A DNA stretch of 64,000 nt from Escherichia coli. GTDB lineage: Bacteria > Pseudomonadota > Gammaproteobacteria > Enterobacterales > Enterobacteriaceae. This document shows, piece by piece, positions 29,101 through 32,100 of this stretch. Where the stretch lies: assembly GCF_003334785.1 (NCBI RefSeq), contig NZ_QOWV01000002.1. One strand, written 5' to 3'. Each line of letters opens with the position of its first letter. Within the stretch, counting starts at the first letter, position 1. Made by a program: the position numbers.

Positions 29101-32100
29101 GGGTGATGAACAAACGATATCCGCTGTAATCCGTTTTTCTTACCATCGTTACGGTCAACATGGCTGCGCCAGAGAGACGGGAGAGAACATAGGTGCCATT
29201 GGTTGTGGCGACATTTTCCACCGCAAAGAACGGCGCGAAGGAGCTGCCTTTACGACCATAATCCTGATCGGGAGCAAACCATACCGCTTCACCTTTCTTC
29301 AGTGCACCGACAATGCCGCGCAGATTATTTCTGCCGATCATCGCTTTGTTAGAGCGCATGCGCCCACGGGTCTGCACCCATTCCATCAGCTGATTATTAT
29401 GTGGACGATAGGTAGCCATCATTGGTTGGCACAGTCCCATCACGCGGCCGCCCAGTTCCAGCGACATAAAATGGACGCCGACAACCATTACGCCGCGATT
29501 TTGCATTTGTGCGCGTTTAAGGTTATCCAACCCTTCAACATCAAACCATTTACGTACGCGACTGTCGGGCCAGAACCATGCCATGCCGGTTTCTACCAGC
29601 GCCATGCCGAGTGAACGAAAGTTTTCGGCAATCATCTTCTCGCGTTCTTCCGCAGAATGCTGCGGGAAACAAAGTTCCAGGTTTTTACGGGCGATAGATT
29701 CACGACGTTTCAGGAATGGTCGCGCCATTGCGCCAATACGCGTGCCGAGAAAGCAGAGAACAGGATAAGGAAGCTGTACCCAAAGCCAGAGTACACCAAG
29801 CCCAAACCATGTGAGCCAGTAGCGAGGATGTAGAAACTCGCGGGAAAATTTGCATTGTGGAAACATAGTTACCTTCTGTAGATACGAATTGTTGTATCGC
29901 AGAAGATTCCATGTCGACAGCGGTACACTCAATTGGTTGGGCCATCATGTACGACAATGGTTCCTGTAAAGAGTGTAAAGACTAGTCAGGACATAACCAC
30001 GAGGAGCATGAAGGCGGTATCTGTACTTTATCACTCGCTGACTGCTTTCAGCTACTGATTATTAATCGTGCAAAGTAAATATTTTTCCGTACACAACAGT
30101 CTTGCATTTAACATGCTGTTTTCATTGATGCTTAGCAAAAATTGCCAGAGGTTAAGGATTGTCTTACTATTAAAGTGACTGAAGTTACAGGTTTTTTAGC
30201 GCGGCAGGAGGTTGAGCTATGATTAATTTATGGATGTTTCTCGCCCTGTGTATTGTCTGCGTAAGCGGCTACATCGGTCAGGTACTGAACGTGGTATCGG
30301 CGGTCTCTTCTTTCTTCGGCATGGTGATCCTCGCTGCACTCATTTATTACTTCACCATGTGGTTAACTGGCGGTAATGAACTAGTGACGGGGATATTTAT
30401 GTTTCTTGCCCCGGCTTGTGGCTTGATGATTCGCTTTATGGTGGGGTATGGCAGGCGGTAGTGGGTCAGGATGGCTCATTTGGGCAGGTGTTCACATCAG
30501 CATCAGACATGATTGTTCACCTGCCATGTGAAAGACGCTATCGCACAGGATGAATAAGATAATTCGCCTTTGTCGGAAAAGGGGGCGGCATTTCTTCTGT
30601 GAGGTTTAATGGTGGCGCATCTTCTCTCATCTTAAACAAAATCGCCTGTGATGGCTGAAGTTTTGTAGAGTGTGTGGTCGTCATCGCTGATGTTTTTTCA
30701 GTCTCTTTATAGCTCCTCTCACTTCCACCACCCGAAATGGAAAATGCAAAAACATTGCATGCCATAATAGAGACCAATAAAAATAAGCTGAAAAGTATTA
30801 AGTTTACTTTCATAGAAAGTTATCCTGAAAATGGTTCACTGAGAACCTACGATGTTATGGCTGTATTTACATTTAATTAATCAGTATTTACATCGATATA
30901 ATAAATGACATCTCTTTGTGGTATATAAGAATAGTTCTCTGCGACAGGAAGCATATTCCTACAATTGTAAGACTAAAATACTTCTTGCGATAATAACTAC
31001 AACTGTAAGATAACCCTTTCAAAATGACCGTTGCTCTCTGATTTCTCATTTCATGCTCACCCAATATGATGGCGGCGTTTTCTAAAACTGTTAAAGAATG
31101 AGGTAAGTATGAAACGTTTAATTATGGCCACGATGGTCACAGCAATTCTGGCATCTTCAACTGTATGGGCTGCTGATAATGCTCCGGTAGCGGCACAACA
31201 GCAAACTCAGCAAGTTCAGCAAACCCAGAAAACGGCAGCGGCAGCAGAGCGTATCTCTGAACAAGGTTTATATGCGATGCGTGACGTGCAGGTAGCGCGC
31301 CTGGCTCTGTTTCATGGCGATCCAGAAAAGGCAAAAGAACTGACCAATGAAGCTTCCGCTTTGCTGTCAGATGACAGTACCGAATGGGCAAAGTTCGCTA
31401 AGCCAGGTAAAAAGACCAATCTCAATGATGACCAATATATTGTCATTAATGCATCTGTCGGAATTTCTGAGAGTTATGTAGCAACTCCCGAAAAAGAAGC
31501 CGCGATAAAAATTGCCAATGAAAAAATGGCGAAAGGGGATAAAAAGGGCGCAATGGAAGAGCTTCGCCTGGCCGGTGTTGGCGTAATGGAAAACCAATAT
31601 CTGATGCCACTTAAACAGACTCGTAATGCACTTGCTGATGCGCAGAAACTGCTTGATAAAAAGCAATACTACGAGGCAAACCTGGCGCTTAAAGGTGCGG
31701 AAGATGGAATCATCGTCGATAGCGAAGCACTGTTTGTGAACTAATGCTGACAGGCAGTATATTGAGGTAAAGGATTTAACTCCCTCCAGCCGACAATTTT
31801 TTATGACCACAATACGACAGGTTGTGGTCATAAAATTATTTGGCGCTCGCGGTGCTATAAACTCGCATTTTATATTCCTCAAAGTAAACCGCAATAATCC
31901 CGTGTCATCACAAATCATTTATTATGTTATGTTTTATGGTACGCTTTAAAAAGCGTAATCATACCCTTGCTTGTAAATCACCGGCGCTTCTTACAGTTGT
32001 AAGAATAACATCACAAATGTCGCGACTCTCTCTGATTACCACGAATCAATATTTATCATATTCTTCTTTTCGTCCTCACTACTTACCATGCAGAAAGGAA

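Follow-up and report, generated by a model that had tools for sequence, protein, structure and literature searches.

EvgA, a response regulator of the NarL/FixJ family in Escherichia coli, is associated with an 18-bp inverted repeat, the EvgA box. Boxes of this kind are known from emrKY/evgAS, ydeP, safA-ydeO and yegR, where they stand in EvgA-induced promoters, and the emrKY promoter region has been reported to be bound by EvgA (Kato et al., 2000, as cited in PMC9496106). The published set also includes repeats upstream of yfdX and of yfdW, or frc: PMC3720670 describes yfdXWUVE as activated by EvgA and the inverted repeats upstream of yfdX and yfdWUVE as EvgA-bound (citing Masuda and Church, 2003). 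EvgA boxes at yfdX and frc are already known, and not new. Here we analyze them in a 64,000-nt stretch of E. coli DNA (contig NZ_QOWV01000002.1 of assembly GCF_003334785.1), called the window from here on.

Two other systems offer a comparison. BvgA of Bordetella belongs, like EvgA, to the NarL family, and its inverted heptad TTTCCTA (at Pfha, Pfim3 and Pptx) is related to the EvgA half-site TTCYTA. At Pfha the site furthest upstream is an inverted repeat of high affinity, and further, weaker BvgA dimers, spaced 22 bp centre to centre, reach the -35 region; at Pfim3 the last of the dimers shares its centre with the -35 element (PMC7250471). The RcsAB box (TAAGAATATTCCTA) is the site of a regulator of the same helix-turn-helix protein family and has a similar half-site, TTCCTA. 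Its dyad, however, is 14 bp long and lacks the ACA/TGT inner core, as opposed to the 18-bp dyad of EvgA.

Our reading is that three palindromes of the window are very probably EvgA boxes, serving as operators for frc-oxc-yfdV-yfdE and for yfdX. They share with the known boxes the 8-2-8 dyad, the TCYTACA cores and, it appears, the distance to a predicted -10-like hexamer, and we see no essential difference between the two groups. The frc site is alone among the EvgA sites examined in matching the consensus at every position, and the yfdX region, unlike the other EvgA boxes, has two sites in one divergent intergenic region.

The box upstream of frc (TTCTTACAGTTGTAAGAA, 31988..32005) is a perfect 8-2-8 inverted repeat with no mismatch to TTCYTACA-N2-TGTARGAA, and precedes the frc ATG by 251 nt (this and the other boxes are given without a strand). 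A preliminary description of this DNA had noted the perfect fit, which a direct read of the sequence bears out. It had also pointed to a similar site at 30956..30973. This site is present (TTCCTACAATTGTAAGAC, site 1), is strong, and has a single mismatch, at its last base. It is midway between two divergent start codons, 142 nt from that of ypdI and 135 nt from that of yfdX, and is probably the published yfdX EvgA motif. The third and weakest site (TAACTACAACTGTAAGAT, site 2) was likewise recognized at that time, but as 30995-31010. These coordinates cover only its inner 16 bp; with all 18 bp it extends over 30994..31011 and has three mismatches. Sites 1 and 2 are 38 bp apart, centre to centre, in the divergent ypdI-yfdX intergenic region. 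Altogether, the three boxes lie 97-251 nt upstream of yfdX and frc.

A scan of the 64 kb for TTCYTACA-N2-TGTARGAA that allowed up to three mismatches found four matches where 0.46 ± 0.70 were expected; in 100 shuffles the number never rose to four. For a perfect match the calculated expectation, given 14 fixed and 2 two-fold positions, is about 6e-5 per 64 kb. All four matches in the window fall in promoter regions of EvgA-regulated genes. The fourth is the box in the evgA-emrK intergenic region (ATCCTACAGGCGTAAGAA, 41981..41998), which, as the original EvgA target, serves as an internal positive control. The same 18-bp box is found upstream of other known EvgA targets: safA, ydeP, yegR and emrK.

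The sites are also kept in evolution. A 1.9-kb region around them was found in 5424 of 5426 complete E. coli genomes, and 76 bp around the frc box in 5407 of the 5426. E. coli strains were sampled down to 93% local identity, and columns were counted over six of them. In the sampled strains the specified positions of all three boxes are unchanged. The sole half-site change among the six is at 30995, a position of site 2 that was already non-consensus, in the species-representative locus L005. The spacers do change (AT to AC, AC to GT, and GT to GC), and the flanks vary too. Variable columns amount to 1/48 in the half-sites, 4/6 in the spacers and 156/753 in other intergenic DNA (nominal p = 2.7e-4). 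When locus L006, a diverged cluster described below, is added, the half-sites have 6/48 variable columns and the other intergenic DNA 378/753 (nominal p = 1e-7), while every spacer column varies; on this comparison conservation of the box bases exceeds that of the yfdX coding sequence. Purifying selection acts on the half-site bases and not on the N2 spacer.

A search of genome contigs for YfdX gave nine loci. L006 is a diverged yfdX-frc-oxc-yfdV-yfdE-evgS cluster with 80-96% amino-acid identity, annotated as Yersinia vastinensis. Close-range footprinting outside E. coli consists of L006 alone, with no E. albertii or E. fergusonii locus among those compared. In L006 the frc box reads TTCTTACACGCGTAAGAA, the equivalent of site 1 has intact TCTTA cores, and site 2 falls within a block conserved in both L005 and L006. 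The L006 locus (NZ_CACVAF010000001.1, Yersinia vastinensis IP38594) has its E. coli-like block directly downstream of arsRBC and has no ypdI; either the block is an island gained by horizontal transfer, or the contig is mis-assigned.

In six Buttiauxella species, yfdX is found beside homologues of evgS and evgA (EvgA 69-71% identity). In most of the six a box (e.g., TTCTGACATATGTAAGAC) precedes yfdX by about 112 bp, and in most another box precedes evgA. Site 2 aligns with the strong Buttiauxella box TTCTGACATATGTAAGAC. The boxes thus accompany evgAS across genera, and L006 keeps both the boxes and evgS. The gene order at the Buttiauxella loci (L007-L012, about 5400-12900) is gadB-hdeB-hdeD, then a divergent yfdX, then the evgS-evgA homologues on the opposite strand, and it resembles Klebsiella kvhAS-yfdX-hdeDB. 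In the hdeD-yfdX spacer of L009 two boxes stand next to each other in a 20-bp register, and the remaining Buttiauxella loci show a similar alignment.

That EvgA controls these genes is supported further by the literature, from which their EvgA-dependent induction and the designation of their repeats as EvgA-bound are taken. In an evgS-constitutive mutant frc was the most induced gene (log2 8.37), with yfdX (6.97) and oxc (6.59) also strongly induced, and EvgA sites were seen only at genes already known as EvgA-regulated (PMC4283999). The three sites, with 0, 1 and 3 mismatches to the consensus, are in the promoters of genes that such expression data mark as EvgA/EvgS-induced. PyfdX-yfp has been used as a promoter "directly activated by phosphorylated EvgA" (PMC5706723). 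Acid stress induces yfdX, frc, yfdV and oxc. Finally, the cognate regulators are encoded in the same window and are intact: evgS at 37544-41137 (minus strand, 1197 aa) and evgA at 41142-41756 (minus strand, 204 aa), 9 kb from the palindromes. With the box shared by the regulon, the reported induction, the PyfdX reporter and an intact evgAS, direct EvgA control of yfdX and frc-oxc-yfdVE, which the preliminary description had proposed, is supported. A first reading of the sequence alone had thus recovered what are in all probability genuine operators, at exact coordinates.

In the mechanism that we envisage, mildly acidic pH would lead EvgS to phosphorylate EvgA. A dimer of EvgA would then bind each 8-2-8 inverted repeat, with one monomer per TTCYTACA half-site, and the bound EvgA would activate a weak downstream sigma-70 promoter. 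The perfect site would drive frc-oxc-yfdV-yfdE, and the pair in the ypdI-yfdX spacer would drive yfdX. Such boxes explain how mild acid sensed by EvgS leads to expression of the oxalate-dependent acid-tolerance genes frc-oxc-yfdVE and of YfdX, a connection that is established knowledge.

Some points weigh against the assignment of the palindromes to EvgA. Since the yfdX and frc sites helped to define the published consensus, their agreement with it is to some extent circular. For this reason, a matrix was built from outside sites only. It is symmetric, ignores the spacer, and was trained on the emrK/evgA box together with the MG1655 boxes of safA (TTCTTACAGCTGTAGGCA), ydeP (TTCTTACAGGTGTAGGCT) and yegR (TTCCTACATAAGTAGGAA). 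The gadE promoter provided no training site: the hdeD-gadE intergenic region has no box at up to three mismatches, and the only match at the gadE locus is inside mdtE and probably due to chance. By this independent matrix the frc box, site 1 and site 2 rank first, third and fourth in the 64 kb (scores of 24.4, 20.7 and 14.0), with the emrK box second (21.7) and the fifth-ranked score at 10.95. The per-position p-values are <2e-7 for the frc box and 2e-7 for site 1. For site 2 the value is 3e-6, which is not significant genome-wide on sequence alone, about 14 such matches being expected per genome and 0.19 per window; the site is convincing only through its context, conservation and geometry. 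Next, the E. coli strains are related to one another by phylogeny, and the Fisher p-values given above therefore overstate independence. Lastly, the EvgA binding reported at frc and yfdX may have been inferred from motif and expression rather than from biochemistry; our literature search found no usable EvgA data from chromatin immunoprecipitation (ChIP), DNA affinity purification sequencing (DAP-seq) or systematic evolution of ligands by exponential enrichment (SELEX).

The EvgA-regulated promoters appear to have more in common than the box. Anchored on the box and read towards the gene, they show the box, 24 nt, an octamer, 20-21 nt and a -10-like hexamer. At frc the octamer is CTCTGATT (32030..32037, plus strand), 24 nt after the box, and by its inferred location (about -41 to -34) would be promoter-proximal; 21 nt after it comes the predicted -10, TATTCT (32059..32064, plus strand). 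The octamer is conserved in L005 and L006, and the -10 equivalent is TATTCT in L005 and TATTAT in L006. At yfdX the layout starts from site 2. The same octamer CTCTGATT (31036..31043, plus strand) follows site 2 by 24 nt, and its TCTGATT part is invariant in the window, L005, L006 and the six Buttiauxella loci; L006 has a different first base (ATCTGATT). A promoter scan predicted the -10 hexamer TATGAT (31065..31070, plus strand), paired with the -35-like TTCTCA at 31043-31048. It is kept in L005 and L006, and aligns with TATTCT in Buttiauxella, where yfdX has the octamer CTCTGATT with TATTCT as the -10-like hexamer. We also noted the layout, which spans 32006-32064 and 31012-31070 of the window, in the promoters of loci L002 and L003.

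Four other promoters carry related octamers, of the form xTCYTAxx, at the 24-nt offset: safA (GTCCTATT, -10-like TATATT), ydeP (GTCTTATT, TAATTT), yegR (ATCCTATT, TATTAT) and emrK (GTCCTCTG, TAAATT). The octamers are similar to TTCYTACA, the half-site of EvgA, and the Buttiauxella boxes themselves use TTCTGACA; CTCTGATT alone scores poorly as an E. coli half-site. When the half-site matrix is plotted against offset it peaks at 24 nt, with p < 2e-4 over seven promoters, a set chosen partly after the pattern was seen. The safA/ydeP and frc/yfdX promoters may each be a paralogous pair; in the four clearly independent promoters (frc, emrK, safA and yegR) the peak at 24 nt has p = 0.009. Next best is an offset of 2 nt from the box, which in frc corresponds to ACA-AA-TGT, centred at 32016.5.

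The ydeP leader is given as -178..+10 (PMC11210196). If -178 is the ydeP transcription start, then the ydeP box is centred at -74.5, in line with the layout. From the predicted -10-like hexamers we infer that the frc box and site 2 would also be centred near -74.5; the supplement of a Cappable-seq study has no transcription start entries for the frc/yfdX/ypdI region. Predicted starts would fall near 32071-32072 for frc, 31077-31078 for yfdX and, on the minus strand, 30890-30891 for ypdI; in MG1655 numbering these are about 2493439-2493440, 2494433-2494434 and 2494620-2494621. The layout does not extend to evgA: read in that direction, the emrK/evgA box has no octamer at offset 24. As evgA transcription starts about 100-110 nt beyond that box (PMC11210196), the geometry on the evgA side is different.

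Counted from where the primary box starts, the half-site-like octamers begin at 20 and 42 bp, an arrangement that recalls the BvgA arrays. Half-sites at 0, 20 and 42 bp suggest EvgA dimers side by side that may reach the -35 region, as with BvgA, and we infer extra EvgA contacts nearer to that region. Unlike the case of BvgA, occupancy by multiple EvgA dimers is read from sequence periodicity only. The position of the primary site also differs: about -74.5 at the EvgA promoters as against -88.5 for BvgA at Pfha.

The layout bears on how the two sites in the ypdI-yfdX spacer divide their labour. The preliminary description had assigned both to yfdX. Site 2 fits that assignment, since its layout towards yfdX has an octamer and offsets identical to those of frc. 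Site 1, however, shows the layout only towards ypdI, and may act on that gene also or instead. On its ypdI side, 24 nt away, is TTCTTATA (30924..30931, minus strand), which matches the half-site TTCTTACA at 7/8 positions, and 20 nt further comes a predicted -10, TATTAT (30898..30903, minus strand), invariant in the six E. coli strains. The half-site score of TTCTTATA is 6.59; the per-position p is 0.0008 for the window and 0.004 for local intergenic DNA, with the offset pre-set from the other promoters. It is conserved in the six E. coli strains and absent from L006, which has no ypdI. That site 2 is the activator site for yfdX, with site 1 mainly or also activating the divergent ypdI as a direct EvgA target, is to us a serious possibility, though somewhat short of an even chance.

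Expression and geometry speak for this division of labour. ypdI was up by log2 2.75 in the evgS-constitutive array, where its neighbours yfdY and lpxP are not listed (PMC4283999), but many indirect effects in the array are of similar size. Upon exposure to glutathione, ypdI rose 5.5-fold along with yegR, yfdX, ydeO and emrK. The 24-nt offset on which the assignment turns gave the best half-site score in the seven promoters as well as in the four clearly independent ones, and is in agreement with the box position derived from the ydeP leader (PMC11210196). On the other hand, the promoter set behind the layout was in part picked post hoc and may hold paralogous pairs, and start entries for ypdI, yfdX and frc are all absent from the Cappable-seq supplement. 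Also, L006 retains a site-1 equivalent with intact TCTTA cores even though it has no ypdI. Because these cores persist, site 1 probably helps yfdX as well. We would put direct EvgA control of ypdI through site 1, taken by itself, at slightly less than an even chance too.

Overproduction of YpdI activates the Rcs system, so YpdI could act as a connector from EvgAS to Rcs. If EvgA controls ypdI directly, there would be a testable link between EvgAS and the Rcs envelope and acid responses. A broader proposal joins three elements: a fixed grammar of EvgA promoters, ypdI as a direct EvgA target, and YpdI linking EvgAS to Rcs in the way that SafA links EvgAS to PhoQP. In such a grammar, a box with its centre at about -74.5 would be followed after 2 nt by a degenerate half-site and after 24 nt by one of the TCYTA/TCTGA type (about -41 to -34), with the -10 hexamer coming last. 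The whole of this combination we regard as tentative and, on balance, rather doubtful. A common grammar, if confirmed, would predict EvgA targets better than the 18-bp box alone.

In another reading, the palindromes would be bound not by EvgA but by a different regulator of the NarL/FixJ type, such as RcsB acting at an RcsAB box (TAAGAATATTCCTA). Besides the activation of Rcs by ypdI overproduction, there are two observations to its credit: GAAGCATATTCCTA at 30948-30961, which overlaps site 1, matches the RcsAB box at 12/14 positions, and RcsB of Klebsiella pneumoniae binds the yfdX promoter in an electrophoretic mobility shift assay (PMC6394985). But the RcsAB pattern is not enriched in the window (seven matches against 5.4 expected, a number reached in 26 of 100 shuffles), and the half of the RcsAB-like sequence that extends outside the EvgA box, its left half, is not conserved in L006. 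Nor does the frc site have an RcsAB-like match, whereas the 18-bp pattern is common specifically to promoters of the EvgA regulon. We consider binding by RcsB or a similar regulator in place of EvgA very improbable. The palindromes do not belong with RcsAB boxes (the 14-bp dyad TaAGaatatTCctA), that dyad being neither enriched nor conserved beyond its overlap with the EvgA box.

Finally, the palindromes might bind no protein at all, and be either inverted repeats that arose by chance or hairpins at the RNA level, such as terminators or attenuators. In favour of this there is the AT-richness of the intergenic DNA, along with the 7-bp hairpin that the perfect repeat is able to form. The idea nevertheless has next to no likelihood: enrichment and matrix ranks are clear, the folds are weak and no better than those of shuffled sequences (-6.0, -0.8 and 0 kcal/mol; z = -1.4, +0.2 and +0.6), there is no T-tract, and conservation, enrichment and co-occurrence with the EvgA regulon refute it. 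The substitutions found, moreover, are in the spacer, which would be the loop, and in the flanks, and are never compensatory; this is the pattern of a protein-contacted dyad. No Rfam family matched between 30400 and 32400. A structured frc leader was considered separately and rejected, the 216 nt at 32055-32270 (putative leader and frc start) being not unusually structured (z = -0.7).

As to the surroundings of the EvgA boxes, the window is E. coli K-12: it matches MG1655 (2478000-2500000, reverse strand) at 99.986% identity, with two mismatches and one gap in 22 kb. Subtracting a window position x from 2525511 gives its MG1655 position. Genes annotated near the boxes are yfdY (30219-30461, plus strand), ypdI (30538-30813, minus strand), yfdX (31109-31744, plus strand), which codes for the periplasmic protein YfdX, and frc (32257-33507, plus strand), which is followed by oxc, yfdV and yfdE. 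Beyond evgA, emrK starts at 42172 (plus strand). A hairpin resembling an intrinsic terminator lies 3' of yfdX (31799..31835, plus strand), with a 15-bp stem (-18.7 kcal/mol; z = -6.2) that is kept in L005 and L006. With a terminator at this place, yfdX and frc would be separate transcription units, each with one box or more.

The DNA between this hairpin and frc shows some further features. A 65-codon open reading frame (31924-32121) spans the frc EvgA box; its region has indels and is poorly conserved in L006, and the frame is probably non-coding. In L019 (strain DA33133 and at least eight other listed strains), IS1 is inserted at 31843-31852, just after the yfdX terminator and 136 bp upstream of the frc EvgA box, with the box and core promoter intact. 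In L018 (strain Z503), IS1 follows the frc box at a distance of 17 bp (32022/32023), and a fragment of emrY is joined to it. This junction indicates that frc, oxc, yfdV, yfdE, evgS, evgA and emrK were lost in Z503 by an IS1-associated deletion.

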